The position numbers were made by a program, and so were the translations under genes. From a virus (taxonomy: Duplodnaviria > Caudoviricetes), in the IMG/VR virus record IMGVR_UViG_3300020200_000031, positions 1 through 59,768 of that record: a stretch of DNA of 59,768 bases; one strand, 5' to 3'. This document shows positions 5,729-42,878 of this stretch, piece by piece. The notes beneath the pieces are model-generated. The model was not told the origin of the DNA, searched no databases, and was given only the letters and a program-made list of their open reading frames with translations. The first letter of the stretch is position 1. Each line of letters begins with the position of its first letter.

Positions 5729-8293
5729 TTACTTTTCTGGAAAATTACGCTTGAACCATGCAAGATTGGAATCGCCGCCCCTGCCACCCCCAGATTGCTC
5801 AGACCATTTTTTAAATGCGGGTTCATCTATCGCGCGGAAAACACCATTCTCTATTTTTGCAATAACCCTTGGTGCGGCGCCTGGCGGAATGTCCATGTCC
5901 CAGATGTACATATCTTGAATTTCGTTTCTATTTAGATGATTTGTCAACCAACCGTACATTTGTTGACCTTTAACCCTTATCAGGTCGACTGGCAATTGCC
6001 GTCCACCCTGAGCATTTCGAGCAGTCAAACGTTTTTCGGCTTTTTCATAGGGCAAAAACGGAATGTGAACAACTTTTTTGTAATTTGGGTCGGCCGTTGT
6101 TTTGTACTCGTAAAGACGATAACCCGTGCCTTCGGTGACGATATCCATTCCTTCATCAGCGGCGGCAGCAACAGTTTTTGTCGCACTTTTTGCTGATTCC
6201 CGATGAACGGAAACTGAACCCTTTCCGCCGTCATAACCAATGATTCCCTGTTTTATGAAATCGGGGTCTATATGAGCGGCTTCTGAGTTGGGTGGCATGA
6301 GCCCATTTTTGACTAGATGGTCAATAAGCGTTGATTTGCCAACGGCGCCCGGGCCAACGACATGATAATGAACCCGCGTGCCAGGTTTTTTATTTCTTCG
6401 GTCTTGGCGCACTCTTTCAAGAATAATTTGTCCCATTCTTTTTGCCCCAATGCCAACGAAGTTTTTAGTGTCTGGCATTGTTGATGACCTTAGTCCCCTA
6501 TTTTCTGGGCCATATTTTGAATAGAAGTTCAAAATGCGCTGCCATTCCACGTCGGTAAGGTCGCCATCCCTCTTGAATTTTTGGGCCAACGCATATGGAA
6601 CATTGAAACTTGGCTTCGAATTGGCCCAGTCGATGAAATGAATTTTTTGTCTTTCCGGCCACGTAGATGGGCTTGATTTGGCCATTTCGGACAGACTCAT
6701 GGAATTAGTGCTTGAGCGCAGCCCTCTAGCCGCATTCGTGTCGATATCGGGGGTCTTCGGGTCGACCGGGGTCGCCTTGTTTCCCGTGAACAGAAGATTT
6801 ATTTCTTCGTCCGACAAACCAAGTTTTTTTAATTTTGCAATGGAATTTTCAACCGTTTCTTTTCTCCGGTCTGCTTGACGAATAGGGTTTCCGCGTTCAT
6901 CGCGCTGAATCATTCCATCACCACGCTTCATTGGGTTTGCTGTTGAAGAAGACAAACCGCGAGAATCCAAATCCTGCTCGTTTCTTTCCAACGCCCTTCT
7001 CAGCAATTGACTTGCTCTTTGCTTGCTCACCTTCAATTCATCAGCAATATCTTGAATCTTTCCACCATTGGCTCGTATTTCCAAAATTCTGTTATCACGG
7101 TCATCAAGTTTGCCAACATTTCGGGTCTTGGGTTGGCTCGGCGTTTTGTCGGCAATCAACCACGCATCTCCAAAAATCAGCATGGGGTGAAGATTGAGTG
7201 CCGACATCACCAGTCTGTCGGCATCGAACGCATCGATTGATGCGTCTGGTTTGTGCATTGCGTCGATGACCTCCCTTGTCACCCCAAGAACTAATGCCTG
7301 TTCGTCTCGATTTTTGCGTAACCGCAATCTGTCAAAATTTAAAATTTCTTGCGCTTTTAATACCCCGCCCTTTTTAATTTTATTTGGGGTGAACCAGTTA
7401 TTTCTAACCGGAGATGCCCATCGTGGCTTACTCGTATCAATGCTGTCTGTCTCGCTGGCGAGACCACTTCTAATAGGGGCAACCATTTCTCTCCAGGTTC
7501 CATCAAAAATAATTCCGTCATTATCCATGTCGCGCCGTTTTTTGGGGTCTAAAACACCTTCGATTTTTTGTAGCGACCGACGCAATCCTCGGCTGGATAC
7601 ATTTGGTGTTACTGCGTGACCAATCGCCCTTCCGAGACCCTTGGTTCCATAAATTTCTTCAAAAAGAGATTTTTTACGCAATTTATTCTTGGAGGAATTT
7701 TGGAGTTCCCTACGAATAATTGTCCTAATCATTCGATTTTGAGATTCTCGTTGATTTCTTCTTCCCAAAAAAGTTGTTCCTGCAAGCCTGGCGTAATCGG
7801 TGTTATTGGTGCAGGGGAGCCATACTGTTCTTCCAGTCGCTGACGGCATTCTTCTAACGCCAATACACCCGAGCATCCTGCTACGTTTTCGTGCCGACTC
7901 TATGTCTACGAAAACATCCGGGTCATTATCCCGTGGCGATATGCCTGGGATATACGATTTGACGCCACCAGAATATATTGTTGAATTTATTGGTGCCGAA
8001 ACTATCCCGCCGCCCTCAAGCGTAGCAAAGCCGCCGAGCGGTTTGGTTTCTCTTAACTTTTCCCAGCCCTTTTTTTTATTTTTGCCCTTAGCGCGTCTTT
8101 TCAGATATCTTTCATTCATTTCTTGATATGCAGATTTTTTATCGGGTTCTGCGGCATTCGAAAGTCTTTCCAATTCCTCATGGGTTTCACACGGCATCCA
8201 TTTTCCGTCCATTTTGTGCGCACCGGAGCAGCCGACCCATTGTGCAACACGCAAAGCAAAAATCTTTGAATTTGTTTCAGGTTTTGCCGTCAT
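5729..8293 (-). CDS. Multidomain head-associated protein: Cys/His motifs, DxDxDG module, two HTH domains, C-terminal zeta-toxin-like P-loop kinase
   Basis: Walker A GPGAVGKST, HIDPDFIK, VHRES and DIVTEGT (zeta/PezT-like); IQDIADELKVSKQRASQLL (sigma region 4-like HTH); four RGLxSxT-type motifs. Confidence 0.75.
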   Translation of the reverse strand: MTAKPETNSKIFALRVAQWVGCSGAHKMDGKWMPCETHEELERLSNAAEPDKKSAYQEMNERYLKRRAKGKNKKKGWEKLRETKPLGGFATLEGGGIVSAPINSTIYSGGVKSYIPGISPRDNDPDVFVDIESARKRSRMLGCIGVRRMPSATGRTVWLPCTNNTDYARLAGTTFLGRRNQRESQNRMIRTIIRRELQNSSKNKLRKKSLFEEIYGTKGLGRAIGHAVTPNVSSRGLRRSLQKIEGVLDPKKRRDMDNDGIIFDGTWREMVAPIRSGLASETDSIDTSKPRWASPVRNNWFTPNKIKKGGVLKAQEILNFDRLRLRKNRDEQALVLGVTREVIDAMHKPDASIDAFDADRLVMSALNLHPMLIFGDAWLIADKTPSQPKTRNVGKLDDRDNRILEIRANGGKIQDIADELKVSKQRASQLLRRALERNEQDLDSRGLSSSTANPMKRGDGMIQRDERGNPIRQADRRKETVENSIAKLKKLGLSDEEINLLFTGNKATPVDPKTPDIDTNAARGLRSSTNSMSLSEMAKSSPSTWPERQKIHFIDWANSKPSFNVPYALAQKFKRDGDLTDVEWQRILNFYSKYGPENRGLRSSTMPDTKNFVGIGAKRMGQIILERVRQDRRNKKPGTRVHYHVVGPGAVGKSTLIDHLVKNGLMPPNSEAAHIDPDFIKQGIIGYDGGKGSVSVHRESAKSATKTVAAAADEGMDIVTEGTGYRLYEYKTTADPNYKKVVHIPFLPYEKAEKRLTARNAQGGRQLPVDLIRVKGQQMYGWLTNHLNRNEIQDMYIWDMDIPPGAAPRVIAKIENGVFRAIDEPAFKKWSEQSGGGRGGDSNLAWFKRNFPEK

Positions 8294-8708: not shown

Positions 8709-11700
8709 TCACCCGTATCGTTTAATAATGTCATCGCGGCGCGCTATAAGTGTATCTGCAAGGATTTTCGCACGAGCCGGGTCGCTGACTATTGATTGAA
8801 CTGTTTTTCTGATGTCGTCATCGGTAATAGTTCCAAGTTTCTGAGTCTGCTGTTTTAACAGATTTCGGTCCATGTTTGAAAAGTCTACATTTCCGCCCCT
8901 TTTCTGAAGCGAAGTCATTTCCGTTACAGAGTTTCCAAAAGCCACTGTGCCCCCACTCCCCTTTTTGGTGCCTTGTGCCCTGTAATCCAGCGAACCGCCA
9001 ACATCGAGACGAACAGCCCTGCCGTTATTGTCGATTTTAATGTTGTCGTTTAATGGTGCATCCCAGTTTGCCAACCATGCGTCTATTACGAAACCTTTTT
9101 GGGCCTCGGCTTTATCGCCCGCTATGTGTGGCATTCTTGTTTGAATCATTCTGGAAAGCATCACTGGTTCGCCATTGTTTGTTCCCATGTTCAGGTCGGC
9201 TGCGGGAATGCCGGCAAGGTCGTATAGTTTTCCGGCCAACACTTCAGTTTCCATGCGCTCTTGTGCTTGCGCAATGGTTTCTGAAGGTTTTTTTAGTTTG
9301 GTGTAGTACTTAGTGCCATTTGGGTCAGTCAACAAAATTGCTGGATTGGAGCCAGTGTTTTGTGGCGTGCCCTTCGACCAAGCGTCTGTATTAATGGCGC
9401 TTTTGGAAATACTTGGCGCCGTTTGGGGTGTCGGCGCGGGCGTCGTTGGCGTTGAATCGTCATCAGGGTCGGGTCTCCGTGTTGATGGTCTTCGTTTGCG
9501 TCCAACACTACGCCCTGGGGTGATAGTGGCATCTGTGCGACCTCGGTCTTCACGATTCGCCCATAGATGCCATACGGCACCAATTCGCGAGCCATCGGGT
9601 GCTTTGGCTAATCTCTCGGCCTCATCTCTTGTTACTGGAATGTGGTACACGGCAACTCCAGTTCGGTTATGAATTAAGAATGGGTTTCCGACCCCCTTGT
9701 TGGAATTGGTATCAAAGCCATCAATACCAATAATTGGTGCGAAATAACCCTCTTCTTTTTGCTTGGTAAATCTATGCAAATAATCGATTGCCCCAAGAAT
9801 TCGTTTTCTTTCATTTGATGTATCGCCGGGAATCTTGTCAAGTTCTTCGAGTCTTTCAATCAATTGGCTTACAATTTGACCGCTTCTTGACGTTTCATTG
9901 GCCAAATTTGGAATTGCTTTTCTGAACTCCACCGCCAATTCGCCCGCAGATGTTGCTGCGGCACTGTCTCTTCCGCCCATGGTTTTAGTTACGTTGACAA
10001 GTTGTGTCGTTAAATTAGCCATCTTGTCGCGTTCACGTATGAGGTCATTTCGAGTTACAATATCTGCGCTTGGCGGTATCAGTACAAGCATGGAGTGTTT
10101 GTCGGTAGGTTTGCCGCCATATTGCGTCCAATGGCCGGGATAAGCAAAATATTCACCCACACCAAAGGCCCTCATCCCCTGTCCTGGGATAAATCGTGCC
10201 GCCTCATTCGTCAAGAATTGCTCGACGAAGCCTTCGCTCTCGATTTGTTGGTGCCCGGTACCCCTTATCACGGGTTGCCAACCGGCAGCAATCAACCTGC
10301 GCACCTCATCTTCGTTGACCAATGTGGGAAGGTCGGAATAACCGTTGTTCTCCCAAAGGTCGGCCAACAGTTGGTCGAATGCCTTTTCTCTTGCCTCGTC
10401 ACTAAGGGTTTTTGTGTCCTTGAGTTCACCGTCCAACTTTGCCAAAACATCGACAAAACTTGGTTTGATTTTTATTTTGCCAGTATTGTCAATAGACACC
10501 GTTGAGGTCTCGGCCTTAATTCGACCTATATCTGCGGCCAATTCATCTGCGTCTCGTGTACGACGGAACTTAGACAACATTTTTCGCTTCATTGCACGAG
10601 TACGAAGGCGCGTTTGTTTTATTTTAAGAGCAGGGTCTTCGATGGTGAGGATACGACCCTTTCTAAACCCACCCTTTCGACGCTCCGCTCTTTGTCGCGC
10701 CCTGGCCGCACGTGCTGGGTTAACTCGTAGTAATCTTTTTCCGAGGGCCTGTTTTTTCTTTTTACCGGTTTCTTCAGGATTCAATTCACCCACGCTCGCG
10801 GCCCTTTCAAGACCGCCTGCTTGTTTGAAAATTGATGAATCTTGCCCAGGGTTTGAAAACTTTTTAGTTGCTGGGGTGCCTACTGCTTTGGAGATTTTTT
10901 TTCTTGTGCCGGTATGGAAATGTTCCAACAAAGAAAAATCATCATTTTCTTCCATGTTTAACATCGTGACTAAATCTTCAAGAAATCTTTGAATCCTACC
11001 CGACTCACTCAATTGTGGTCGCCCCAGTTTGTCGAGTACGTACTCGCCGGTTTCCGCATTTATTTGAAATTTGTTGACTTTGCCTGAAACGATGTTTTCG
11101 TCGAGCATTTGCATCATCTCTCGAGCGTCGTTTTTTGTTAGTGGGTCATCAAACGGCCTGACCTTCTGTCGTCCGCCGGTTCCCCAGGCGCGTTGTTTCA
11201 CGGCCCGCAAAGATTCTTTATCAAGACCCTCTTCGGTTGCTTTTTGCCACCATTTTTTGTATGGTCCTGTTTTAAGGTATTTGACTATTTCGGCTTTTTC
11301 GGCAGCAATTGCTTCTTTGGTTTTTGTTCGGTCTTCTTCGGACATGGATTCCCAAAGGACCCCATCACCGTCTTGTTTTTTTACACCGCCGTTTTTCAGA
11401 ATCTGACTGAAATATATATTTCTCCTGGGTTTGGGTTTTGATTTTTCTACTTCAGTTCTTGTTTCTGGAAGCGTTGTGGTTGACCCCAAGCCTCTTGGTC
11501 GACTGGCGCGTTCGGTTGTGGCTGTCGCAATTCGACTCGATGTTGGTTGGGTTACAGGGCGACGTCGTGGCGATGATGTAGATGAACTCAAACTACGCTG
11601 TTTTAGTGCCTCGTTTCTAAGGTCCATTATTGCGATGCGGTCATCTTCGTCATCAATGCGTGTTATATCGAGGTTGTCAACCATGTTCAAAATCGAATTA

Positions 11701-14021
11701 ATTTCGTCTTTTGATAATTTCTCGCCTCGTTTGAGTTTTGCAATGGCGTTAACTGCGTCATCGAGGTCACTGCCCAAATCTGGGTCATCTGTTTCGGACC
11801 TCAAGCCTCGCCCTGCTTTTTCCTCAGGTTTTGTGCGTTTGATGGTCTTTTGTGCTCTTTCCAATATTTTTTTAAATTCTTCACGTTGTTTTTTGTTTTC
11901 TTCAAGAATTTGAAGCGACTCGGAACCTATTGGCTTATTTGGGTCTGTAGATGAAGACAGGCCACGTCGTTTTTTGCCAGCCAGGGCCCGCCTCAGGAAA
12001 GAGGGGGTCGGTTTTTGTTTAGGCGAGGAAACATCCTCAATAAGTCTCTGTATTCGCCTGTCATTGTAAAAGAGGTCGTTGTTGTCCGCAACGTCGTTCA
12101 ATGATTCCAAAAGCGACGCCCGCTCTTTGTCCGAAAGGGGTTTATCGGCAGCGAATTTTTCCAGATTTCTCGCAAACTCAGGTTCGGCGGTGCCGCGCAT
12201 AGCGTCTCGCAATTCCTTGATGATGTTTTGGCGGTCATCATCGCCGGCAGATGAAGACATTCGTTTGACATCGTCAATTAACTCCGCCAACCTGTCATCG
12301 TTTTGGAACGTTTCGTTGTTCTCGGCCATGTCCTGAAGGGTTTCAAGTAGTTCAGATTGTTCGTCGCCAGAAACCGACATACCTTTGGCGATTTTTCGTA
12401 GGGCTCTTTGAAGTTCCGGTTCTTGCGCACCCTCGGCCATTTGGGTGATGTCATCAATCAGGCCACCGAATCGCGTGGCCCGTCCTCGACCGTCTAGGTA
12501 TTTTTGTCTATCTTTTGATGTTTCGCCCAATTTACCCAGAGCAGACGCAACGGTTGCCTCCAATGCGTTCACCCTGCTTGATTTGTTTCCGTCGGGGTCA
12601 AATGCGGCAATTACCTTTACGGGGTTGACATCCCGACCGGAGGCGACTCCGTTTATGTATTCGGATAAAGCATTGAGTACGTCGGACGGATACCTTTCGG
12701 TCTCGTCTTTCGCCAAATCGGAGGCCACGCCATCAACCAAGTTCTTTATCAACTTCTGTCTATTTTTGGGGTCTGCTTTCTTGAAATCATCCTGTTGCGA
12801 TAGTGCCGACAATTTTGCCGTCACCGTTGAAACCAGGTTGCCGGAATTCGACCAATCGGCGCCATCTGCTTCCCACGCCTTCCTAAGTCCACTGTCCCAG
12901 TCAGCACCGCCCGCGTTGACGGAATCCATGAAGCCAATAGCGTCTACAATGCTTTGCCTGGTGCTTGACTCCAGTCCGCGTGGTTTCTTTTTGTCAACAA
13001 ATGAGGTTCTTGAGCGGTTGGCATAATCTCGTTTTTCTAATTCCTCGATTTCTTTCTCGTCTCCGGGCGTTCTGATTCCATAGCCACCGCCACGATTTGG
13101 AAGATTCATTCCCCCATCACGACGGGCCGCGAATCTTGTTGGGTCTGGCATTTCCCGCCACGTGCCATCGAAAATCATTCCGTCGCCATCAACGTCTCTT
13201 CTTAAACGTGGGTCTAGAACACCAGAAATTACCCGTGTTGCCCTTGACAAAGTATGTCGGCGTCTTCCACCGGGCAATCCAGGCCTGCCCGACGGCACAA
13301 GTGCTCGACCGGTTCTTCCTATTGCGTAGCCCAAGCGACTCTTAACAAAAAAATCCACAATTTCTTTGGTGTTTTTACCAATTTCATCGCGTTTAACTAA
13401 CGGGAGATTTTGTTTTACAAGAATATCTTTATTGATTATTTTTACAATTTCTCCACCAAATTTACGTTCATGACCTTTTGACATTTTTTGCTGTATTGCA
13501 TAACGTTCCGCCATTTGAGATGCGCGATTGGGCTTAGGATTAAATTGTTTGGTTTCATAATTAAACGCTAATTCATTTGTCCGAACCCTGAATCCAATTT
13601 CGCTCCTTATTGCCGATTGCCGAAAATGTTTGGCCTTGTAAGAAATAGCAGTTTTTTTCTTGTTTTGTGATGAAGGAATTTTTTTATTGGTAACCGTAGG
13701 ATATTTGGAGATATTGGGATACCTGATTGATTTCACCAAAAGTTGACAATTGTTCTGTGTTGCCAAAGAACCATTGACGGCCGCAATGTCTAGGCTTCCA
13801 ATAATTATTTTCTTCATCATTCCGTCAGACAAATTTTTAAATTCACCTACAGAAATTCCGACCGGCAAATCAGACAGTCCCAGATTATTTTGATTGGCCC
13901 ATTCTGACCATTCCACACCTTTATCGCTCCAACCGTAAAATTGATTGGAATCATCAGACCTAACAACTATGCCAAAATTGATGCCTCGATGGACATTTTT
14001 AAGTATTGCGTATTTTTTCAT
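8709..14021 (-). CDS. 1770-aa polyvalent protein with ART-like domain and C-terminal HipA/PI3-4K-like kinase domain
   Basis: Kinase motifs GSNP, KYYTK, EVLAGKLY, DAWLANWD, RLDVGGSL-YRAQG; ART-like VIRG...GQGMRAFGVGEYFA; DxDxDG module; five RGLxS-type motifs. Confidence 0.75.
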   Translation of the reverse strand: MKKYAILKNVHRGINFGIVVRSDDSNQFYGWSDKGVEWSEWANQNNLGLSDLPVGISVGEFKNLSDGMMKKIIIGSLDIAAVNGSLATQNNCQLLVKSIRYPNISKYPTVTNKKIPSSQNKKKTAISYKAKHFRQSAIRSEIGFRVRTNELAFNYETKQFNPKPNRASQMAERYAIQQKMSKGHERKFGGEIVKIINKDILVKQNLPLVKRDEIGKNTKEIVDFFVKSRLGYAIGRTGRALVPSGRPGLPGGRRRHTLSRATRVISGVLDPRLRRDVDGDGMIFDGTWREMPDPTRFAARRDGGMNLPNRGGGYGIRTPGDEKEIEELEKRDYANRSRTSFVDKKKPRGLESSTRQSIVDAIGFMDSVNAGGADWDSGLRKAWEADGADWSNSGNLVSTVTAKLSALSQQDDFKKADPKNRQKLIKNLVDGVASDLAKDETERYPSDVLNALSEYINGVASGRDVNPVKVIAAFDPDGNKSSRVNALEATVASALGKLGETSKDRQKYLDGRGRATRFGGLIDDITQMAEGAQEPELQRALRKIAKGMSVSGDEQSELLETLQDMAENNETFQNDDRLAELIDDVKRMSSSAGDDDRQNIIKELRDAMRGTAEPEFARNLEKFAADKPLSDKERASLLESLNDVADNNDLFYNDRRIQRLIEDVSSPKQKPTPSFLRRALAGKKRRGLSSSTDPNKPIGSESLQILEENKKQREEFKKILERAQKTIKRTKPEEKAGRGLRSETDDPDLGSDLDDAVNAIAKLKRGEKLSKDEINSILNMVDNLDITRIDDEDDRIAIMDLRNEALKQRSLSSSTSSPRRRPVTQPTSSRIATATTERASRPRGLGSTTTLPETRTEVEKSKPKPRRNIYFSQILKNGGVKKQDGDGVLWESMSEEDRTKTKEAIAAEKAEIVKYLKTGPYKKWWQKATEEGLDKESLRAVKQRAWGTGGRQKVRPFDDPLTKNDAREMMQMLDENIVSGKVNKFQINAETGEYVLDKLGRPQLSESGRIQRFLEDLVTMLNMEENDDFSLLEHFHTGTRKKISKAVGTPATKKFSNPGQDSSIFKQAGGLERAASVGELNPEETGKKKKQALGKRLLRVNPARAARARQRAERRKGGFRKGRILTIEDPALKIKQTRLRTRAMKRKMLSKFRRTRDADELAADIGRIKAETSTVSIDNTGKIKIKPSFVDVLAKLDGELKDTKTLSDEAREKAFDQLLADLWENNGYSDLPTLVNEDEVRRLIAAGWQPVIRGTGHQQIESEGFVEQFLTNEAARFIPGQGMRAFGVGEYFAYPGHWTQYGGKPTDKHSMLVLIPPSADIVTRNDLIRERDKMANLTTQLVNVTKTMGGRDSAAATSAGELAVEFRKAIPNLANETSRSGQIVSQLIERLEELDKIPGDTSNERKRILGAIDYLHRFTKQKEEGYFAPIIGIDGFDTNSNKGVGNPFLIHNRTGVAVYHIPVTRDEAERLAKAPDGSRIGAVWHLWANREDRGRTDATITPGRSVGRKRRPSTRRPDPDDDSTPTTPAPTPQTAPSISKSAINTDAWSKGTPQNTGSNPAILLTDPNGTKYYTKLKKPSETIAQAQERMETEVLAGKLYDLAGIPAADLNMGTNNGEPVMLSRMIQTRMPHIAGDKAEAQKGFVIDAWLANWDAPLNDNIKIDNNGRAVRLDVGGSLDYRAQGTKKGSGGTVAFGNSVTEMTSLQKRGGNVDFSNMDRNLLKQQTQKLGTITDDDIRKTVQSIVSDPARAKILADTLIARRDDIIKRYG

Positions 14022-16743: not shown

Positions 16744-17200
16744 CTTTGGATTTTTTCTTTCTTTTTCCCTTTTTAAATTTTTGTCCAGGGGCTTCAATCC
16801 AATTTGCAATCATTTTTTGAGACCATTGACCGGTATTTTTTGCAAGAACGAAATCCATCGCCCTGTTTTCGAATTCCAAAGACTTTGCCTGTCTTTGTAA
16901 AACATCCTTGACAATTATCGCACCGGTCAAAAGTTCTTCACGAATCGGCAAGGATTTACTTACAAAAACAGAATACCAGTGAATATTTGTTTTAGACTGA
17001 TGACCGTTCCATAGGTAATCATGGAATTTAGTATTAAGAATTTTTTGCATTTGGGGATGGCTGTCAACATATTCCCAAAAACCTTCCACACTTATATCTC
17101 CCACCTTGTTTTTAACAACACAATCGGCATCAGGACAAATTGAATCGACAATAAAATATATTTTATTACTATCAGATTTTCCCACAAGTATTGACTTCAT
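16736..17200 (-). CDS. Hypothetical protein (154 aa)
   Basis: ATGA overlap with the stop of the 3209-aa gene (translational coupling). Confidence 0.65.
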   Translation of the reverse strand: MKSILVGKSDSNKIYFIVDSICPDADCVVKNKVGDISVEGFWEYVDSHPQMQKILNTKFHDYLWNGHQSKTNIHWYSVFVSKSLPIREELLTGAIIVKDVLQRQAKSLEFENRAMDFVLAKNTGQWSQKMIANWIEAPGQKFKKGKRKKKSKDG

Positions 17201-20200
17201 GCCCGTACAAACTCTTTGCGCTCATCTTGGTTTTGACTAATTCGTCGCGCGCGTCTACGGCCAATTTTATCAGATTTCTTATTTTTGGCCAATAATGGCA
17301 TTATTGCAAAAGCCAAAACAATTGGGTCTAAATCTTCTAGATTTATAGAATTCTTCACATTGGCAGATTTGATATTTAGCCCAAGTTTTTCAATTAAGGG
17401 TAAAAGAGTTTCTCGGGAAATTTCTGCCGGTAATTGCCAGTTATGTGGCATAACTTGCTCTATAGGCTTTCCGCTTACGTCATGTGTCCGGCTCATTCTG
17501 GCTCCCTCTGTCCTAATATCTGGCGCCCTGGAAAATAAAAACCAAGAAGCGAATGCCTCGGCCAATCCTTCTGTCGCTTTTGAGGCGGCATAACGAGTGG
17601 CCGCTATACGCTTCTCTATTTCCTCCGCCCGCAATGCTGAATGAAATATTTCGTCAGGGTCTCCACCCAGGTTTATCGTTTGACCCTTGCTGATTAAGCG
17701 TTTTAATAAATGTCCCATTAGCGACGGCATCCTTATTTTTGATGCGCTTTTATCTCTTACGCTGAAATCGAGTAAATGGCCGAATTCATGAATCATTGAA
17801 CCGTAGGCAATCCTTCCTGCGATTTGGCCAGTCAATTCTTCTAATTTATTTGGGTCATCATATGAGACATCATATTTTGGCAATCCCAATTTGCCAAACG
17901 CTACCGGTGTTGAACCCCCGGGGGCCAAAATTTGAACTTCCCCCCGCGCCCCAAAAGTCCCTCGACGGGGTTGATAGTGTTGACCCCAGTTCAGGGAAAC
18001 AATTTGTCTTGCGGCATCTTTAATTTCGGCGGCATTTATATCAATACGCGTTTTGTGTTTGTTGCCTTCTTTAAATCTTTGCGCTCTAAAAAATTTTACT
18101 CGAGGACCAAAGGTGCCAAAAACGCTGGTTGGTACAAAAATTTCACTGCGCCCTTCAATCCCACCATCTGTAATATTTACTGAAAAATTGTTGTCTTTTA
18201 GAAGTAGTTTCATTCCCGGTACATTCGAAAGTAGGTCATCTAGGGCCTGCACGGCTGCATAGCCCGCGAAATTGGTTGCCAACGGTCTTCCGTTTTTGTC
18301 TTTTTCTTTAAATAATGATTTAGACATCTCCACATCTATTCCATAGGTTTTTTTGAAATATTTTCGGACCTGTTTTGGCGAATAGCCAAATTTTTTCTTA
18401 AGATTTTCTGGCGCTTCAACCCTGGGAATGCCTAATTCGTCTCGTCCGTGTGGCAACTCAAGGGGTCCTTGGTCTAATTTTTCCGCGCTGCTTCTATCGC
18501 CAGGTTTGAAATTTTCCCCAAACCACGAATCTGTTGACGTGCTGCTTGCCAATCCCCTTGTACCGCTTGCCGATTTTTGCAATGATTTTTTTGGCTTTAG
18601 GTCATCAATTTCTTTGTTTGAAGCAACACTCATATTGTTGTCAGACAAAAGTTTTCTTATTGTTTCTGCCCCCGCCCAACCGATGACATCAACAAGTTCA
18701 TGCTCTTCCGATAAACCGCTGATTTTCATAGAATTCGGATACATGCCACGACTTTCCCAGTCAAGTCCTTCGTGATTCAAAAATGTAACTTTGGGTCGCT
18801 CTTCAGGACTTTCTGCAATCAGTTCCCGAATTCTTTGCCGTTCGCTTAGGCGTCCGATTAGACGTGCCCTGGCAGAAATTTCGTCGCGTAACTCTTTAAT
18901 CAATTTTTCGGAATATTGATTGTCCTTATTTTCAATAATTTTTTGCAATAGGCTAAGTTCTGATTTTGATAAATATTTTCCAAAAAAATCTTCTATGATT
19001 TTCTCATCAACTTTTCTGGTGTCGCGCTGACCGGGGTGTATCGCATCACCATCATTTTTCATATGTCGCCTTTGAAACTCAGGTTCAATACGGATTTCTT
19101 CTACGTCATTCATATCAAATCCGCCCGCCACTATTGCTTCGATGTAGAAGCGATAATCCTTATCAATGCTTGTGAGGTGTGCAAAATCGTTTGAAACACT
19201 TGCTTCTAAAAGATTTATAAATCTTTGTTGTTCAGAATCGGGAATATGCGCGTGCGTGGTTCGAAACCGGGCTAGGTATCTATTTAATATTGCCGCCTCG
19301 AGCAATTCGTCATCGGTTGCCGAACCATCGAGGCTGACGGGTGTTCGCATGCCACTAAAAGAATCACCAAAAGTCACCAACGAACGTTGTGCAGTTTCCG
19401 GTTTTAAGATTATTTCAGAGTGCCCATATTGCCTTGGAAGCGAATCGACAAGTTTCCCTTCAAAAGAATTTGGGTCGTCGATTCTCTTGTCGCCAACGCT
19501 GTCTTCGTCGCCAATAGCAATTATTTCGAGCAAATTTGGGACACTCTCTTCGATTTCTTTGATTTTTTCTGACTGTTGTTTCGCGCGGTTTTTTAGGTGT
19601 CTTTCATTAAATTTCTGTTCGTCAGGATGTTTCAAAAATCCGTGCGCGGGTCTAATCGTATTGCGCGCCTTTGAAGGGATACCCAAAAGTAATTCAATGT
19701 CTTTTCTGTCAGCGGATTCAGATGATGCCGTACTTTGTCCTCCGAACTGTCCTAATTGTCGGGGGTCATGTGTTGTCTTCCATTTTTTATCTTTTATAAA
19801 GCGGTATAATGGTGATTCGTCCGGTGAATCTCCTATCCCTTCATCTGAGATTCCGCGAATTCTAAATATTGGACGTTTATCTAATCCGTCTATATATTTT
19901 CTTACCGAATTAGCCGCAATCTTTTTAATTTCTTCTGGAGAATTGTTTCGAAGAAGTTCTAAAACTTCTGGGCTCACAGGCCTGCCGTAATTCCATTCCT
20001 CTACAATTTCGCCCGTTTTTGCTTTATCGATTGTCTTATTAATTACTTCATTGAATCGAACCTTCGCTTCTTCGTGACTCTCATATCTGGCATCATCCGG
20101 AGTAACAACACCGAAAGGGTTGTTTCTTTTTTCGACCCAATCTTTGCGTTTTTTTTGCTTCTCAGCCAATGCTTCCCCACTTGGTTTCCCAAATTTAATT

Positions 20201-28359: not shown

Positions 28360-31300
28360 TCAAACATCGTCAACCGGTTTTGTAGTTTTGTCGACAAAGG
28401 TAGACATTGCTGCTGACGCAATTTTTTCAAGTAATTCAGCAAATATTTCTGCCCTACTTCCAACTCCGCCACCCTTCCCTGCGGTTTTTTGTCTATCAAT
28501 TATTTCCATTACGGCGTCAAGAATTTGGTCAGCCTCGTCTGCTGAAATTTTGATTGAGCCCACATTTGTTCTTTTTGAGTTCGGCCGAAATGCGGCGGCT
28601 TCGTATTTTTTAATTTTTTCCTGAAGTATTGTCAAGCCTTTTTGAGTCAATTTTGAATCGGCTTCCCGAATCTCTTTGCCCAAGGAATCATCTATCTTTT
28701 TCCACCAAGTCGATTCATTAATAATTTCAGTTCTTGGCCGCTTTGTGGGGGTGGTTGAAGATGAAAGACCCCTACCGCCTTGTTTTTTGAATCTGTTTGT
28801 TTTTTGGAAACGACGGGCCTTGTTTATTGAATTATTAATCGTGGTGCTGCTAGGAAGGCCGCGGTCATCATAATCATCGTCGTCGCCGCCAAAGCGACTA
28901 TCAAGATTGTCTTCATCACGACCAACATCAAATTCATCAGGGTCGTCATCGTCTTGTTCAAGACGGCCCGACCTATCAAGTCGCCTACCCGACGCTCCGG
29001 CGCCGCTAATCATGTCTTCTTCCCCCAGGTCTTCTTGAGTATCGCTGCGCCGTTCTCCACCAAAATCGTCAAGAAGTTCTCGAATCTGGAACAAATAGTT
29101 ATGCACACCCTCTTCTGCCTTGTTAAATTTGCCTTTTCTGACGTCGTCATTTTTTAGTTTTGCAATTTCACGCAAACCCTCATCCAATTCATCAAGGGCT
29201 TCTTTGACCGACTCTGGGTTAGGGCGGTTGTTGTCGCCGCCATCGTCCGGAAAAGCCAACGCCATAACCCTGTCTATAAGGTCGATTGAGGCGGTCTCAA
29301 AATCGCTTCCCACCTGTTCTTTATCTTTGTTGGCCCTGCGTTGTTTGAAGAATTCCTCAAATGTGCTCCTGTACGCCGTCAACTTTTCTTCTAGTTCGCT
29401 ATTCCCCGATTTTCGAGGGCTTGTTTTGGGCGCGGGTTTTTTCTCTTCGGGCTTCGGGGTGTCCGGTTTAGCCGGTCTTTGATTTGACACCTGCGGTCTT
29501 GGGCGTCTTTCGCTCTCTATCTCGCGAAGACCTTTTCCCGATTCTCTTCTGAGACTTTCGTCTAACAAATAGTCATCAAATCTTTCGAGGAAGGCCTGCC
29601 ATTTTACGGCCCTATTTCGTTTCTTTAGGGCTTCATGATTTTTTACGAACCAGGCATATTGAGCATCGAAATCCATTTTGTCAAAATCTTCTGGGAATAT
29701 TCCTATATCTATGTAGGGTTTAAGTAAATTCTGACCTTTGTGGATGTAACTAATTTTTTTTCTACTGCTTTGCATTGGGTCCGGTTCAATGTGGAATGGT
29801 GGATTTTCCAGATTCTTGGGATAACCTGTGGATTTTTCCTTTTCGGCAGCCTTTTGCCCGGCACGTGTGTCTACGCCCCTCTTAATTCTTCGTTGGCCAA
29901 CAATTTCCTTGTCGCCAAGTTTTGTTTTGGGGCCAATTCGTATTTTTTTAGTAGGCGAAGCGGGTGCTTTTGATTTGTTTTTGCGTTCGAACTGGCCTGT
30001 TTTTACCAATTCATCCAAAATTCCAAATGCTGTGTGGCCTTTTTCATTATTTGCTTTTAAGTCAGCCACGCCGCCAAGTTCTTTAAATTCTTCACTAATT
30101 TGAGGCCATATTTCTTTGAATTTTGCCAACATTTCTGTATCTATTTTTGGCAAAAGAGTAGCATCATCAAAACGTGATGCCTCTTTTATTTCTTTAGCAA
30201 ATTGTTCAACAATTGTTGGTGGCGATGTAGAATTTTTAAGAAAATTATCAAACATTCTTACTAATCTGTTCTTCGATTTTCTAGGAATAAAAAATAGCAC
30301 AACTTCTCGGGGTGGTTTTTGTTCTGCCCATGCTTTCCACCACGTTTTGCCCCATTTCTCTTTAGGAAATGACTCTTTTTTAGGCTTATATCTATAAATT
30401 GGGTGGGGGAGGGGGGGGTTGTGGGTGGGAGATTTTGGAACTTCTGTATCTGAACTTAAACCTCGGTCGAAAACCCTTGTTGGGGCTGGCATTTCTCGCC
30501 ACGTCCCATCAAAAATTATGCCATCGTTGTCAACATCGCGGCGTTTTCGGGGGTCTAGTTCCCCTGTAATTTTAGCGAGCGCGGCCCTGCCGCGCCGAAC
30601 TTTTCCCCCACCACCCGGCACCAGCCTGCGACCAATTCGCCCTATTAAATTTTTGGTTGCAGTACCAATTGCTTCATGAGCATCATCATTAAGTGGGGAC
30701 ACCAATAAAATTCCGTCCTCGGTTACAACGGTTTCAATTCGGTGAAAATCAAAAAGAGGGTCAAGTGCTTGTTTTGTTTCAAAAGCGCTTTCGGGAGCAC
30801 ATGGAATAAGCCATGCATCTTCTTCGGTTTTTACACTAATCATATTTTGTAGAGAATTGGTGATTTCTAAAAGTTGCTGCGTTATTTCTTTTTGTTCCTG
30901 CTCCACAAGTTTTTTATTAAAAATGATGTCTAGGTCTATTTCCGATTTTGAAGAATCAAAAAACCCACTTTGGGTGTTTGAGTCACCATATTTAACGGGG
31001 ATAAGTGGCGTGCTGGGTATATACGGTTTTCTTTGAACGTTTGGAAAATTTGGAATTCGCTGCCCGGGTCTCATGCCTGGATTTGTGGTTGGCATTCCGG
31101 GCATTGGTCTCTCAATTACAACTGGGGAAGTAACCTGCTCAGGCTTGCCAAACATCCATTGATTTCCGTCAAAATGATAGGCAAGCCTAAAAATTCCTTT
31201 TCCAGGTTTTACAAAAAGAACAAAACTTTCCGTCGCTTTCATAACCTTGATTGGTCCACCGGTTCGAGAAGTTAGTTCTTGCTGGAGAGCCAAGATACGG

Positions 31301-31920
31301 TCATTATTGGCCGGCTGAGCAATCCCTTGGGCGAATGGGTCATTTGGTGTCTTGGGTTCTTCAATGGCTACTGCGGTGATGCCGCCCATTGGATACATGT
31401 GAACTTTTTCTTCTTCGCCTTTTACCGAGATTGTTCCGGTTAATTGATTGGCGCCATGCAAAACCGGACTTAACTCGTAAAGTTCCACCTCCCTAAGAAC
31501 ATTTGCTTGCCTACTGTTGTCAAAAATGGCATCAAGTGTTTTATATCCAATAGACCATTCTTGTTCTTCGCCAAAAAATGCAACGTTTGTAAATGCCTCT
31601 TTACCTTTTTCTGAATTCAAATTAAATTGAATTTTTGCGTACAGGCCGCCGATTCCGGCAATTTTCATTTTTTCTGGAAGACGTGGGTCGTTTGATGGAA
31701 CCTCGTAAATTTCCAATACTTTGCCAATTGGGTCATTCCAGTTATGGCCCCAAACCACACGCGGTTTTCTGCGTGTAAGGCTCTTTTGAAAAGCCCCCGC
31801 AACAACGATGTCGCCAACGCTGTCTTTGTTGCCGATTCCGGCCACAAAACATTCAACAATCCCCTGAGCCTCGTCTATGTTGAATTGCCCGTTATTTGAC
31901 TTAAATTGTATGTCTTGCAT
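28360..31920 (-). CDS. HK97-family prohead protease (peptidase S78) with ~1000-aa C-terminal extension
   Basis: GNKDSVGDIVVAGAF, WGHNWNDPIGK, WSIGY, LREVELYELSPVLHGAN; extension holds a DxDxDG module and three RGLxS motifs. ATG at 31920 preferred. Confidence 0.9.
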   Translation of the reverse strand: MQDIQFKSNNGQFNIDEAQGIVECFVAGIGNKDSVGDIVVAGAFQKSLTRRKPRVVWGHNWNDPIGKVLEIYEVPSNDPRLPEKMKIAGIGGLYAKIQFNLNSEKGKEAFTNVAFFGEEQEWSIGYKTLDAIFDNSRQANVLREVELYELSPVLHGANQLTGTISVKGEEEKVHMYPMGGITAVAIEEPKTPNDPFAQGIAQPANNDRILALQQELTSRTGGPIKVMKATESFVLFVKPGKGIFRLAYHFDGNQWMFGKPEQVTSPVVIERPMPGMPTTNPGMRPGQRIPNFPNVQRKPYIPSTPLIPVKYGDSNTQSGFFDSSKSEIDLDIIFNKKLVEQEQKEITQQLLEITNSLQNMISVKTEEDAWLIPCAPESAFETKQALDPLFDFHRIETVVTEDGILLVSPLNDDAHEAIGTATKNLIGRIGRRLVPGGGGKVRRGRAALAKITGELDPRKRRDVDNDGIIFDGTWREMPAPTRVFDRGLSSDTEVPKSPTHNPPLPHPIYRYKPKKESFPKEKWGKTWWKAWAEQKPPREVVLFFIPRKSKNRLVRMFDNFLKNSTSPPTIVEQFAKEIKEASRFDDATLLPKIDTEMLAKFKEIWPQISEEFKELGGVADLKANNEKGHTAFGILDELVKTGQFERKNKSKAPASPTKKIRIGPKTKLGDKEIVGQRRIKRGVDTRAGQKAAEKEKSTGYPKNLENPPFHIEPDPMQSSRKKISYIHKGQNLLKPYIDIGIFPEDFDKMDFDAQYAWFVKNHEALKKRNRAVKWQAFLERFDDYLLDESLRRESGKGLREIESERRPRPQVSNQRPAKPDTPKPEEKKPAPKTSPRKSGNSELEEKLTAYRSTFEEFFKQRRANKDKEQVGSDFETASIDLIDRVMALAFPDDGGDNNRPNPESVKEALDELDEGLREIAKLKNDDVRKGKFNKAEEGVHNYLFQIRELLDDFGGERRSDTQEDLGEEDMISGAGASGRRLDRSGRLEQDDDDPDEFDVGRDEDNLDSRFGGDDDDYDDRGLPSSTTINNSINKARRFQKTNRFKKQGGRGLSSSTTPTKRPRTEIINESTWWKKIDDSLGKEIREADSKLTQKGLTILQEKIKKYEAAAFRPNSKRTNVGSIKISADEADQILDAVMEIIDRQKTAGKGGGVGSRAEIFAELLEKIASAAMSTFVDKTTKPVDDV

Positions 31921-31943
31921 CCGCATTCCTTTGCGACTTAGCA

Positions 31944-31979
31944 ATGATAAACGAATTTAGTCTCTATCCATTGAAGGTA
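31944..31979 (-). promoter_or_regulatory. Putative promoter TACCTTCA-N22-TATCAT
   Basis: Intergenic between portal and protease; next to a 9-bp inverted repeat atttctgta / tacagaaat (31979-32012). Confidence 0.35.
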
Positions 31980-32011: not shown

Positions 32012-34033
32012 TTAATTTGCAAAACCCCAGGCAATTCGCGCTTGTTCTATAGAAACCTCATTGACGGTCTTGGCAAGAATATTTGAAAATATGGCCACAC
32101 ATTTTGCGCGGAAATCGATATTTCTCTTGTCGGCATCCTTGGTATGCAGGCTCGATATGTAGGCAGAATTTAAGCCTTCATACAACATTTCGTTTACTTG
32201 TTTAAATTTTTCAATTTGTGTATCGAGTTGGGCAACAATGTCGATTTTATTTAGGGATTTTTCTGAAAATTCCAATCCATCGTAAATAATTGTCGACAAA
32301 ACAGGACGAATATCCTCGTCAAATTGTTTGTTCCAAACATCGGAATTGAAAATACTTTCCACGACAAATCCGTTGCTTGCTATTGCCCGCTTTGATTTGA
32401 TGCCACCTAGTTTTTCCAGAGTAACTCGCTGCTGGCGTTCAACCAATCTTTCAAAAGCCCTGTTCAAAATTGCAGCCCATCGCTGTAGGGACACGTTGTC
32501 TTCTTTTGTTTCGATGAAACCTAGGGGCTCAATAGACGCCTGTTGCTGTGGGGCAAGTGCCGCGTTTTGTACGCCCGCATCAGCCGGAGGCGGAGTCGGC
32601 TCGGGTGGCAATTGGGGCTGGCTGGCGGCGGCCAATGAGCCCGCCATTGTGTTTGGGTCAAGCGGGCTGGGAATATTGCCTTGGGCATCAGGCATTCCCG
32701 GAACGGCTGGTTGTCCTTCGGCGCCCGGAGCGGGCATTCCCGGCATTCCCGGCATTCCCGGCATTCCCGGCATTCCGGCTTGGGGCTGTTGTTCCATTTT
32801 CTTTTCGGTGTTTGCGATTGGAGTCAGATTTGGATTCATCAACAAAGAGTCAGCAAGGTCACTTTCTACCTTTTTGCGACTTGTCAACTCCCTATATTCG
32901 TTGGTGCTAATTAATCCCATTTGAACTTCATCCATGAAGTAACGAGAACGCTCTTGTTTATACAAAATCAATATGGGAACGCTCGAAACATCAAAATCAA
33001 CGTAATTGACTTCGTCTAGTTCGTCAAACCCTCGAGCCAACAAATCGAGGTGAGGCAACATGGTTTCATTCCAGAACACACGGTGTTCTTCTGCTGCGTT
33101 TGCAAAAGTCCTGCCCGAGGCATTCCCAATGACTGATTCTGGAACCCCAAACGCTGCGAGAATTTCTTCTTTTTGAATTTGTCGCATTTGCACGTAGGCC
33201 GCGTCGCGCGGATTTGCGGACGTATCGACATAATCAACACCCTCGTCGGAAGAAATTACCGTCGTATAACCGGCCCTCCCTATATTTCCGCGAAATCTAT
33301 TCCTCAACTCATCCTTGTCGTCGTCGTTAATTTCTCCTTTAACAACCAAAATGCCGCCGGGTCGGCCATCGTTTATCAAATAATTTCTGTTATAAACTTT
33401 TGCCAAATTTTCGATTTCAATTGCGATGCCCGCAGACTCCATTGGCGTAAGAGATAGGTATGGGTCAAGCGGGTGGGGGCGACGAATCCATAGCACGTCG
33501 TCTTTTTTCATTATGATTTTGTTACCGTTTGGCAAATCGACCTCGTATCCAGCAACGAATGTTTTTTCGTGAGGAATCGGTGCGGTGAATTGCGGCGGCA
33601 GAAGGTTTAGTCCAATCAGGCGACCGTCACGACCTTTTATTTTTTCGATAAATGCGCCACGTGAACTCATCAATAATTGGGACGAAAGTCTGTACCTAAA
33701 GATAAATGCATTTTCGGCGTCATTGGATTTTGTGTTAAAAATTTCGATTAAGGGCGAACGCAATGCCCGGCGCCCAGTCAAAATTTGACCATCTCTCGAA
33801 TTATCTTTGCGAAGAATAATTGAGAGCCTCGCCTGGTTGCCGGCGATGGCGTCGATGCAACGCTGTACCCACGTAATTTTTTGGAACCCTTCGCGATACG
33901 CGCGCTCGATATCCCACATGTCGTGGTAGGGCCTGCCCAAACGACCCGGGTCCATGTTGACCGGCAGGCCAGGGCCCAAAGACTTTATGCCTTGATTCCC
34001 AAGGGATTTATTGTTTGACGAGTTCCAGGCCAT
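32012..34033 (-). CDS. Portal protein, HK97 family, with Pro-rich linker and C-terminal extension
   Basis: WVQRCIDAIA, LLPPQ, HPLDPYLSLTP, NDGRPGGIL, EILAAFGVPESVIG, ISTNEYRE. Confidence 0.93.
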   Translation of the reverse strand: MAWNSSNNKSLGNQGIKSLGPGLPVNMDPGRLGRPYHDMWDIERAYREGFQKITWVQRCIDAIAGNQARLSIILRKDNSRDGQILTGRRALRSPLIEIFNTKSNDAENAFIFRYRLSSQLLMSSRGAFIEKIKGRDGRLIGLNLLPPQFTAPIPHEKTFVAGYEVDLPNGNKIIMKKDDVLWIRRPHPLDPYLSLTPMESAGIAIEIENLAKVYNRNYLINDGRPGGILVVKGEINDDDKDELRNRFRGNIGRAGYTTVISSDEGVDYVDTSANPRDAAYVQMRQIQKEEILAAFGVPESVIGNASGRTFANAAEEHRVFWNETMLPHLDLLARGFDELDEVNYVDFDVSSVPILILYKQERSRYFMDEVQMGLISTNEYRELTSRKKVESDLADSLLMNPNLTPIANTEKKMEQQPQAGMPGMPGMPGMPGMPAPGAEGQPAVPGMPDAQGNIPSPLDPNTMAGSLAAASQPQLPPEPTPPPADAGVQNAALAPQQQASIEPLGFIETKEDNVSLQRWAAILNRAFERLVERQQRVTLEKLGGIKSKRAIASNGFVVESIFNSDVWNKQFDEDIRPVLSTIIYDGLEFSEKSLNKIDIVAQLDTQIEKFKQVNEMLYEGLNSAYISSLHTKDADKRNIDFRAKCVAIFSNILAKTVNEVSIEQARIAWGFAN
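32733..32777. repeat. 9-bp tandem repeat (ggcattccc)x5 encoding (GMP)5 in the portal
   Basis: Directly visible tandem array, in frame. Confidence 0.9.
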
Positions 34034-34040
34034 TTAAAAA

Positions 34041-34220
34041 TTACTCAGCGCCCAATAGATATCCGAAAAGACCACAACCAACTCCTGCAATAATAAAGCC
34101 GACAGGCGGCGCTATGAGAAAGCCTCCTATTGCAGTAAATAGTATAAATGACGCCATTAGCATGTGAGCGAACGTCACTCGGTTTGCCTTTAATTTGAGC
34201 AACGCAATAATTTTTTTCAT
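34041..34220 (-). CDS. Small membrane protein upstream of portal (59 aa)
   Basis: Read manually: MKKIIALLKLKANRVTFAHMLMASFILFTAIGGFLIAPPVGFIIAGVGCGLFGYLLGAE. Two TM helices, a common position before HK97-type portals. Confidence 0.75.
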   Translation of the reverse strand: MKKIIALLKLKANRVTFAHMLMASFILFTAIGGFLIAPPVGFIIAGVGCGLFGYLLGAE

Positions 34221-34274
34221 GCTGTAGTAAACTAGCGCACTTGTTGGGCTACGATTGAATACAGTGGTTTTTAA
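34221..34274. promoter_or_regulatory. Divergent promoter region
   Basis: 54-bp gap between opposed operons; TACGAT (+) and TAGTTT (-) -10-like hexamers. Confidence 0.45.
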
Positions 34275-35579: not shown

Positions 35580-35621
35580 CGACAGTCATTATCTATCTAA
35601 TTACTATCAAGGGGTTATTAA

Positions 35622-37547: not shown

Positions 37548-37550
37548 TTT

Positions 37551-38383: not shown

Positions 38384-38393
38384 TCTATTCGCC

Positions 38394-41756: not shown

Positions 41757-41840
41757 ATTAATTTGGCTTGACTAATGCTAATATTTTAAGTGTCGCATCC
41801 CGATATATTTTGCGACACCCATTGACGTTTGGAGTTCAAA

Positions 41841-42877: not shown

Positions 42878-42878
42878 A

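Follow-up and report, generated by a model that had tools for sequence, protein, structure and literature searches.

Internal and ejected proteins that are processed by a phage head protease have been well studied only for the T4-type (S77) enzymes, and the protease of T4 itself recognizes the motif (L/I)-x-E. HK97-type proteases are far more widespread, and no cleavage code or cargo-loading route is established for them; in 2013 Duda et al. are said to have expected the HK97 protease to be co-assembled in the prohead and to digest itself. Herpesvirus UL26 has the cleavage consensus (V/L)-x-A↓S (arrow, bond cut). The excerpted account of this protein places its R and M sites (release and maturation) on either side of the non-protease part (PMC4498786). 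According to the excerpted text of a further study, T4 and giant-phage proteases cut long propeptides off ejection proteins at x-x-E; in the giant phages the motifs take the form A/S-x-E, and the propeptides removed from ejection proteins are longer than 100 amino acids (aa) (PMC5694885). Here we describe a gene in which an S78 (HK97-type) prohead protease heads a chain of 1186 aa that is punctuated by L-x-S peptides. It lies on the minus strand of IMG/VR virus record IMGVR_UViG_3300020200_000031 (Caudoviricetes), whose whole length of 59,768 nucleotides was analysed and is referred to as the window. On balance we favour a reading in which a competent S78 base acts as a capsid-internal carrier, its L-x-S joints are cut by that same protease, and the cargo is packaged and probably delivered.

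The gene is a single open reading frame (ORF) at 28360..31944, which would encode 1194 aa if begun at TTG 31944, 8 aa more than the ATG form. The likelier start is ATG 31920, which has AAGGA 6 nt upstream and yields a product of 1186 aa that is 100% identical to the public gene call P0004. Residue numbering throughout counts from ATG 31920. In the following layout, disorder and folding are read from AlphaFold2 models by the predicted local distance difference test (pLDDT).

28360..31920, minus strand: protease-cargo fusion gene, 1186 aa (stop codon 28360-28362).
31396..31920, minus strand: S78 (HK97-type) prohead serine protease domain, aa 1-175, with His59, Ser123 (WSIGY) and His155 (Pfam, PHROG, BLASTP, model).
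31306..31395, minus strand: disordered linker, aa 176-205 (pLDDT <50 over aa 154-195).
31126..31305, minus strand: small alpha+beta domain of cystatin/NTF2-like shape, aa 206-265, in the conserved "mid" region (pLDDT about 94).
30931..31125, minus strand: Pro-rich disordered linker, aa 266-330, 18.5% Pro (composition, AlphaFold2 model).
30661..30930, minus strand: long helix and ferredoxin-like domain, aa 331-420, where the base form ends (AlphaFold2 model, fold search).
30466..30660, minus strand: shared adaptor module, aa 421-485, GRIGR...LDPxKRRDxDxDGxIFDGTWREM, with an Asp-Pro pair and a DxDxDG loop.
30451..30465, minus strand: junction site 1, R486-G-L-S-S490, in a stretch with pLDDT <50 (aa 484-497).
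28864..30450, minus strand: lineage-variable cargo, aa 491-1019, three predicted folded domains and an acidic tail.
28849..28863, minus strand: junction site 2, R1020-G-L-P-S1024, disordered in the model.
28774..28848, minus strand: basic peptide, aa 1025-1049, predicted single helix.
28759..28773, minus strand: junction site 3, R1050-G-L-S-S1054, disordered in the model.
28363..28758, minus strand: conserved C-terminal alpha/beta domain, aa 1055-1186 (own profile; pLDDT about 90).

The N-terminal domain was recovered by PF04586 (40.9 bits and E 3e-10 for the whole protein, 47.8 bits for aa 1-175 alone, cut-off 21) and by phrog_80, "head maturation protease" (E 5.2e-28). BLASTP against HK97 gp4 (225 aa, E 4e-9) paired His59 with His65 and Ser123 with Ser114, which we take to be the catalytic residues of gp4. 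A three-way MAFFT alignment misplaced the catalytic Ser by a gap; the BLASTP pairing was preferred and is supported because of the spacing to the following L-x-E-x-S strand. His59, Ser123 and His155 were invariant in an alignment of 65 family members, and would fit the Ser-His-His triad given for herpesvirus assemblins in the excerpt of PMC4498786. An AlphaFold2 model of aa 1-500 had a mean pLDDT of 66.6, and its protease core (aa 11-153) had block means of mostly 71-87 with a single dip to 60. The model aligned best to T4 gp21 (5jbl_A; Z 8.8, root-mean-square deviation 3.3 Å over 121 residues) and also matched the varicella-zoster virus protease (Z 6.3). Herpesvirus proteases ranked first in Foldseek, weakly (E 0.04-0.3, none at E<=0.001), and a PDB sequence search with aa 1-200 returned chance rows only (E >= 0.5). 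Judged by these matches and by the modelled fold, aa 1-175 is an S78 protease of the assemblin/gp21 fold with intact catalytic residues and predicted activity.

Beyond the protease the same model showed a confident small domain at aa 200-265, disorder at aa 266-326, and a long helix with a ferredoxin-like domain at aa 327-433. The mid-region folds (aa 199-266 and 369-433) matched common small folds only, of cystatin/NTF2-like and ferredoxin/KH-like type (Z 6-7). A second model, of aa 491-1186 (pLDDT 71), predicted three insert domains (aa 526-650, 700-805 and 842-953) with basic or Pro-rich disordered linkers between them and an acidic tail after them, and the C-terminal domain was confidently folded over aa 1063-1176. 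All three junction sites fell in stretches with pLDDT <50. The insert domains matched no Pfam family (E<=0.5, sub-threshold noise only), the insert had no usable match in the protein atlas, and the aa 491-1186 model matched nothing in BFVD at E<=0.001. VIA-align with the whole of that model returned mostly generic four-helix bundles (Z <= 10.4), a result that does not bear on the fold novelty of the single domains.

The original prediction for this gene had described an S78 protease with the Ser of WSIGY as its catalytic residue, fused to about 1000 aa of cargo-like sequence that comprised a Pro-rich segment, a DxDxDG module and three RGLxS-delimited segments. The protease domain (PF04586 and phrog_80), the catalytic Ser (paired with gp4 Ser114 and invariant in 65 sequences) and the Pro-rich segment at aa 266-330 were borne out. 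An extension is present too, at a smaller size than claimed: aa 176-420 are still part of the conserved base, and the appended part is about 765 aa. The delimiting sites are likewise real, and the division into Trp/Lys-rich, acidic and helical pieces is not; the sites delimit 534 aa with a Trp/Lys-rich start and an acidic end, a 30-aa basic peptide (+8) and the 132-aa C-terminal domain.

Comparison with relatives separated a conserved base from an added part. The fusion had 559 long relatives at E<=1e-3 in the 656-2090 aa band and 145 shorter matches; domain counts refer to the 120 listed of each kind, and the domain hidden Markov models (HMMs) were built from 34 full-length homologues. All 120 long relatives carried the protease, always within aa 1-192, together with the mid region, whereas 95 had the module and 102 the C-terminal domain. 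Between these two parts, the insert ran from about 380 to about 1400 aa. By precomputed Pfam accessions, the relatives' inserts include Sigma70_r4, DUF6321 and entries that we take to be helix-turn-helix (HTH), pentapeptide-repeat and ArdC-N plus MPTase-PolyVal. Of the short relatives, 102 consisted of protease and mid region only (450-570 aa), 12 of the protease only, 5 had the module and 1 was the C-terminal domain alone. The C-terminal domain was absent from 119 of these 120 and is confined to cargo-bearing forms, and all 11 base forms whose C-termini were inspected stop exactly at the module start. The cargo-less forms thus end where the module begins, and the protein therefore consists of a base protease with one appended unit, made up of module, junction, cargo, junction and C-terminal domain. 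That the C-terminal domain is an ancestral capsid-targeting tail of the protease was ruled out, as the cargo-less base forms do not have it. In the complete 160-kb relative G007 (the whole L057 record, with direct terminal repeats) the protease heads a chain of 3567 aa with 11 [KRGS]-L-[SA]-S-G joints and an internal HELMH.

A six-frame scan of the window found 16 RGL.S, 14 of them in the coding frames of four ORFs: three in the protease fusion, three in an 854-aa protein, four in a 1770-aa protein and four in a 3209-aa protein. The last three are laid out as follows.

5729..8293, minus strand: 854-aa protein with a DUF3721 leader, the module at aa 216-283, an SGLASE variant and 3 RGLxS (6485-6499, 6713-6727, 6947-6961).
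8709..14021, minus strand: 1770-aa protein with the module at aa 234-300, 4 RGLxS (11481-11495, 11796-11810, 11952-11966, 12966-12980) and an RSLSSS variant.
17197..26826, minus strand: 3209-aa protein with 4 RGLxS (18544-18558, 21373-21387, 23014-23028, 25993-26007), a GGLASS variant and two HExxH.

The 14 copies in the 7,019 aa of these four ORFs compare with a shuffled mean of 0.21 (maximum 3 in 2,000 shuffles), and no RGL.S occurred in the 34 other ORFs (11,425 aa). With the degenerate copies SGLASE, RSLSSST and GGLASST there are 17 sites, with the consensus R-G-L-x-S-S-T. Five different codons each encode the Arg, the Leu and the Ser, and on average 11.5 of 21 nt are common between sites. 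The codons vary freely, and selection therefore acts on the peptide; a DNA-level repeat or recombination signal at the sites was ruled out by this codon divergence. Sites 1 and 3 align in position across the 34 full-length homologues (29-77% identity) with the core (G)-L-x-S. G[LM].S closely followed the module in 59 of 95 relatives and closely preceded the C-terminal domain in 62 of 102; among random 50-aa insert windows 8.6% contained it. For the looser [LM].S the counts were 72 of 95 and 86 of 102, against 35% of random 50-aa windows. Altogether the 120 listed proteins held 428 G[LM].S, versus 92 in shuffles.

Residues flanking the core agreed better within than between proteins (P2 0.53 vs 0.36; P2' 0.31 vs 0.14), which is as expected of one co-evolving recognition system, with a contribution from shared ancestry too. 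The flavour of the joint changes with the lineage. GL.SS was observed 15 times in the window (0.66 expected) and 8 times in L027, GL.SG 9 times in L081, RL.SG 6 times in L019 and [KR]L.SG 8 times in L057; the 172.5-kb record L068 also has [KR]L.SG joints. The tail after L-x-S correspondingly reads SST, SG, SE or SxR by lineage. In the 854-aa protein the first piece is the leader, with DUF3721 and the module; the sites set it apart from a Sigma70_r4 HTH, from two stretches of about 77 aa each and from a zeta-toxin-like P-loop kinase. They isolate the Sigma70_r4 and kinase domains and mark domain borders, and these two domains are candidate injected host-takeover modules. The five sites of the 3209-aa protein leave six pieces, with HEVTH at aa 663 and HEFGH at aa 3013, and this chain looks like a typical polyvalent protein. 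It also has a DGHHRW ParB/DdrB-like region (phrog_2859, aa 1990-2122) and a KTSC motif.

The DxDxDG element of the original prediction (D-V-D-N-D-G, aa 462-467) proved to lie within a module of roughly 65 aa that is common to two of the neighbouring large proteins. Residues 421-493 of the fusion are 53% identical to aa 216-283 of the 854-aa protein (E 4e-14) and 55% identical to aa 234-300 of the 1770-aa protein (E 1e-13). The family-built HMM found the module in all three chains and did not find it in the 3209-aa protein. A profile of the three copies matched 51 clusters at E<=1e-3, and 26 at E<=1e-10, among 1.84 billion cluster representatives. The module lies at about aa 415-480 in protease fusions; most of the strongest matches are proteins of 800-3566 aa that have it at about aa 100-300, and from these positions it behaves as an N-proximal adaptor of large proteins. 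Homologues of the leaders of the 854- and 1770-aa proteins occur in G007 as separate ORFs, each about 240 aa long and lacking the module; together with the 3567-aa chain they lie in L092-L099 (about 33043-43743 and 54950-56620). The module of the fusion also contains, at aa 447-457 (30550-30582, minus strand), a near-invariant Asp-Pro pair (D456 and P457, each in at least 90% of 65 sequences) six residues before the DxDxDG loop. The claim that the protease follows the grammar of its giant neighbours was sustained, in that it has the same module and the same junction motif and that both are kept in a large family of protease fusions. RGLxS as the form of that motif stood in part: it is present at R486, R1020 and R1050, and family-wide the Arg is often absent and the conserved core is (G)-L/M-x-S.

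We propose that the conserved 420-aa base (protease plus mid region) would be built into the prohead carrying its appended cargo, and that the 854- and 1770-aa proteins would use other head-internal leaders with the same module. The fusion runs from the base through the 65-aa module, about 530 aa of fast-evolving cargo and a 30-aa basic peptide to the 130-aa C-terminal domain, with (R)-G-L-x-S joints in predicted disordered linkers. After prohead assembly the S78 protease would most likely cut after the Ser of L-x-S (Leu at P3, Ser at P1), and the predicted self-cut fragments are 54.4, 61.5, 3.4 and 14.5 kDa. With the same cut at 14 further sites in the 854-, 1770- and 3209-aa proteins, the four chains together would give about 20 fragments. 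The freed domains would remain packaged and would probably reach the host together with the DNA. We infer each of these steps, namely cleavage at the motif, S78 as its enzyme, the bond cut, the packaging of the products and their delivery. An i, i+2 pattern with Leu at P3 and a small P1 fits, by analogy, proteases of the assemblin fold such as those of HK97, T4, giant phages and herpesviruses, and from the sequences the S78 domain is our best inference for the cutting enzyme.

The gene lies in the head module and follows the portal gene directly; the same strand carries the capsid gene, 22 kb away and beyond the cargo genes. The minus-strand order is portal, fusion, 459-aa acidic protein, 3209-aa protein, three smaller ORFs, 1770-aa protein, a 132-aa ORF, 854-aa protein and 438-aa capsid protein. 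The large terminase gene is divergent, on the plus strand. The remaining head genes that concern us are these.

32012..34033, minus strand: portal gene, immediately upstream of the protease fusion (PF04860, E 5e-50).
26850..28229, minus strand: 459-aa acidic protein without a junction motif, probably scaffold-like.
4267..5583, minus strand: HK97-fold major capsid protein, 438 aa, with an N-terminal scaffolding-type domain of about 100 aa.

In the portal protein, a C-terminal extension (aa ~430-500) contains a PGMPGMPGMPGMP repeat and a stretch rich in Pro, Ala and Gln, and a conserved C-terminal part comes after it. The 459-aa protein has a poly-Asp/Glu N-terminal half and a weak PepSY match. 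Over its C-terminal ~310 aa, relatives share 82-86% identity, far above the protease fusion, and its aa 350-424 match the C-terminal end of the 1633-aa protease of Gordonia phage DalanDe (57% over 75 aa, E 2e-25). By this resemblance the 459-aa protein is probably a scaffold-like partner that is split from the protease in this phage. In the capsid protein an F-L-x-S at aa 104-107 (F-L-Q-S) is kept in four aligned sequences of the window lineage and in G007, and to judge from the alignment it may be purely structural. The G007 capsid protein has Q-L-S-S-R in its variable junction, and G007 joints elsewhere read L-S-S-G. Among cultured phages, the capsid protein comes closest to those of actinophages (Brevibacterium phage Cantare 46%, Gordonia phages 44%). 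The same actinophages are closest for the protease domain, yet DUF3721 and DUF6321 in the window hint at an aquatic host.

Several findings weigh against self-processing at L-x-S by the S78 domain. Even [LM].S is missing at site 1 in 23 of 95 relatives and at site 3 in 16 of 102, and site 2 is recognizable only in the nearer of the 34 homologues. In only 5 of 20 non-protease carriers of the module does [GS][LM].S occur within the next 50 aa. The 459-aa acidic protein has no junction site, and the capsid protein has no RGLxS. The capsid sequence between the scaffolding-type domain and the shell (...QVETR-SIGEAFLQS...) also suits an HK97-like cut after Arg, and its F-L-x-S reads F-V-K-S in DalanDe, whose protease polyprotein yielded no such motif with four patterns. 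The name "cargo" for the insert of the fusion rests, by analogy, on the inserts of relatives, and the insert itself has no recognizable family or fold. Moreover, the conserved Leu and Ser are equally readable as P1' and P3' of a metalloprotease cut at G↓L. The original proposal that S78 is the RGLxS-cutting enzyme accordingly gains from the grammar shared by the four chains, and loses from the zincins that co-occur, from a capsid protein without RGLxS and from an Arg that is not conserved.

The last reading of the motif would make the zincin (HExxH) domains of the 3209-aa protein the enzyme, cutting probably at G↓L with Leu at P1', and would leave S78 to trim capsid and scaffold only, itself a mere substrate and carrier. 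We judge this unlikely. Collagenase-type zincins cut at G↓L/I, and Gly precedes the Leu or Met in 57 of 72 site-1 contexts and 62 of 86 site-3 contexts, as such a bond would give. Among the fetched loci, homologues in 14 distinct matching sequences keep HEVTH (aa 663) and homologues in 6 keep HEFGH (aa 3013), and G007 has HEIAH in a 2206-aa homologue and HELMH inside the protease polyprotein. An attempt to dismiss the zincins by genome content failed: in two complete relatives the zincin-1 segment was matched outside the HExxH region only and zincin-2 was unmatched, and G007 has other HExxH proteins. HExxH homologues were present in every lineage checked, and a second protease candidate therefore always co-occurs. 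In the excerpted text of Iyer et al. 2017, MPTase domains are moreover proposed to autoprocess polyvalent proteins (PMC5512222). However, the zincin segments are themselves bounded by junctions like other cargo, and no Pfam peptidase family scored above threshold in them. Zincin region 1 falls to 23-54% identity in lineages that keep L-x-S, while the first 500 aa of the protease, with the S78 domain among them, stay at 46-86% among relatives. The sites of the fusion also stand right after its own constant part and right before its constant end, like the herpesvirus R and M sites.

That last arrangement can be turned another way, with the extension as an assembly scaffold fused to the protease (as in UL26, lambda C/Nu3 and P2 gpO) that is fragmented at the sites for exit and delivers nothing. 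The order of protease, linker, long acidic, helical and disordered region and conserved C-terminal domain, with sites at both ends, does mirror UL26; the gene stands between the portal and other head genes, and no effector family was detected in its insert. We nevertheless consider a scaffold improbable. Base forms without module, insert and C-terminal domain are common, the insert varies greatly in length, and families of DNA-binding and ArdC/MPTase type occur in it among relatives. A scaffolding-type domain is already present at the N-terminus of the capsid protein, and the 459-aa acidic protein, by its conserved C-terminal part and its match to the end of the DalanDe protease, is the likelier scaffold; in the 854-aa protein a zeta-toxin-like kinase and a sigma-r4 domain are linked by this same grammar of module and junctions. 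It is very unlikely, in our view, that the motif is instead a flexible-linker, docking or modification signal (e.g., Ser/Thr modification of S-S-T) and that the chains stay intact in the virion. The sites are Ser/Thr-rich and lie in disordered regions, and N4-type virion polymerases are described in the excerpt of Iyer et al. as packaged uncut (PMC5512222). Against this, Leu and one Ser are conserved at i, i+2 while the S-T tail varies, a protease subsite pattern that fits better than a modification site, and the motif shares its chain with a protease in hundreds of relatives.

Within the favoured reading, in which the S78 base carries and releases its own cargo, the module invites a broader idea that is possible but doubtful: module and L-x-S junction together may be a portable load-and-release cassette that makes any prohead-internal protein a carrier of arbitrary cargo. 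Candidate carriers would be the maturation protease itself, the DUF3721 protein and others, and the task of the module would be to dock cargo in the assembling head or to gate its release. An Asp-Pro pair beside a calcium-type loop recalls metal-dependent self-processing modules such as that of Neisseria FrpC, and by analogy the module might be a metal-triggered self-processing switch. If the cassette idea is true, HK97-type phages would have a natural programmable protein delivery in which the protease is both enzyme and vehicle.

The source record is linear, 59.8 kb long and rated 40% complete. Completeness is put at 91% for a relative of 136 kb and at 100% for two others of 160-172 kb, and because of these ratings the phage genome is probably about 150 kb. 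Megablast against cultured phages found no near-identical DNA. With tblastn the protease domain alone was matched, in 127 records at no more than 42.5% identity (best in Gordonia phages), and neither search found the long protease-fusion form in cultured phages. Downstream of the terminase gene, 36128-41224 on the plus strand encodes a Rad52-like annealing protein, a PD-(D/E)XK/Cas4-like nuclease, and a ParB_N gene followed by a PAPS-reductase-domain gene.

The grammar of carrier, module, L-x-S junction and cargo can be read from sequence in hundreds of uncultured phages of about 150 kb. If the cuts are true, they would give a testable specificity for an S78 protease, a rule that predicts injected proteins (sigma-like, kinase, nuclease and zincin modules), and a compact tag-and-release design for bringing foreign proteins into HK97-type capsids. 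The annotation is also corrected, since "HK97 family prohead proteases" of 1000-3500 aa are polyproteins. In the full-text literature, from which subscription journals fall outside coverage, we found no description of an N-terminal S78-cargo fusion or of an L-x-S junction code, also when the specificity of the HK97 protease was the target.

The fusion resembles HK97 gp4 in family (HMM and BLASTP), in the aligned catalytic His and Ser and in its place after the portal gene. Unlike gp4, which has 225 aa and lies beside the capsid gene, it has a base of about 420 aa and about 765 more residues and lies 22 kb from the capsid gene. The HK97 gp5 sequence holds F-N-K-S, presumably the maturation site F-N-K↓S that is cut after Lys103, whereas the repeated signal of the window phage is L-x-S. 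The nearest cultured phages are Gordonia phage DalanDe, through gp27 (ON755184.1), and Bendigovirus-like actinophages, with 42.5% identity in the protease domain and 44-49% in the capsid protein. DalanDe gp27, a "capsid maturation protease" of 1633 aa, is likewise a giant fusion, but about 1100 aa precede its S78 domain (aa ~1120-1299), and the acidic part behind that domain ends in the motif of the 459-aa protein. The module was not found in gp27, and four patterns gave no G-L-x-S-type motif there (one RGL, one L.A[SG]).

With UL26 the fusion shares the protease fold, the N-terminal position of the protease, a long non-protease part, and sites after the protease part and near the C-terminus, as far as the excerpted account of UL26 goes. 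L-x-S↓S also resembles the UL26 consensus, (V/L)-x-A↓S, with a hydrophobic P3, a small P1 and Ser at P1'. The UL26 extension, however, is a conserved scaffold with a nested gene, while the insert in the window is hypervariable, is missing in base forms and follows a grammar common to non-protease carriers. A functional likeness links the system to T4 gp21, which acts on the capsid targeting sequences of IPI-III and Alt, and to the propeptides of phiKZ and SPN3US, since in each an N-terminal targeting part is removed by the head protease at a short motif. The T4 and giant-phage type uses S77, x-x-Glu and one gene per cargo; the window has an S78-family protease and not S77, L-x-S and not (L/I)-x-Glu, and multi-joint polyproteins in which the protease is a carrier.

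Polyvalent proteins, in the excerpted text of Iyer et al. 2017 (PMC5512222), are giant multidomain chains encoded next to head genes and predicted to be packaged, processed and injected, as we suppose here. Assemblin-like peptidases occur in them always at the C-terminus and with limited distribution, according to the same excerpt (PMC5512222); in the present family the protease is N-terminal (aa 1-175), the family is large, and there are a defined junction peptide and an adaptor module. Phage P1 offers a further likeness in its Dar system, whose large anti-restriction proteins are described in the excerpt of PMC9024508 as loaded into the head by an N-terminal signal, with a prohead protease present. 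It differs in that the proteins come from separate genes with a signal of <30 aa, the protease is not a carrier, and the excerpted text describes no repeated junction motif (PMC9024508). The locus therefore belongs to a known kind, that of head-protease-processed internal proteins and polyvalent proteins, and differs from its described members in using an S78 protease, in the N-terminal position of that protease, in the (G)-L-x-S code, in the adaptor module and in having the protease as carrier.

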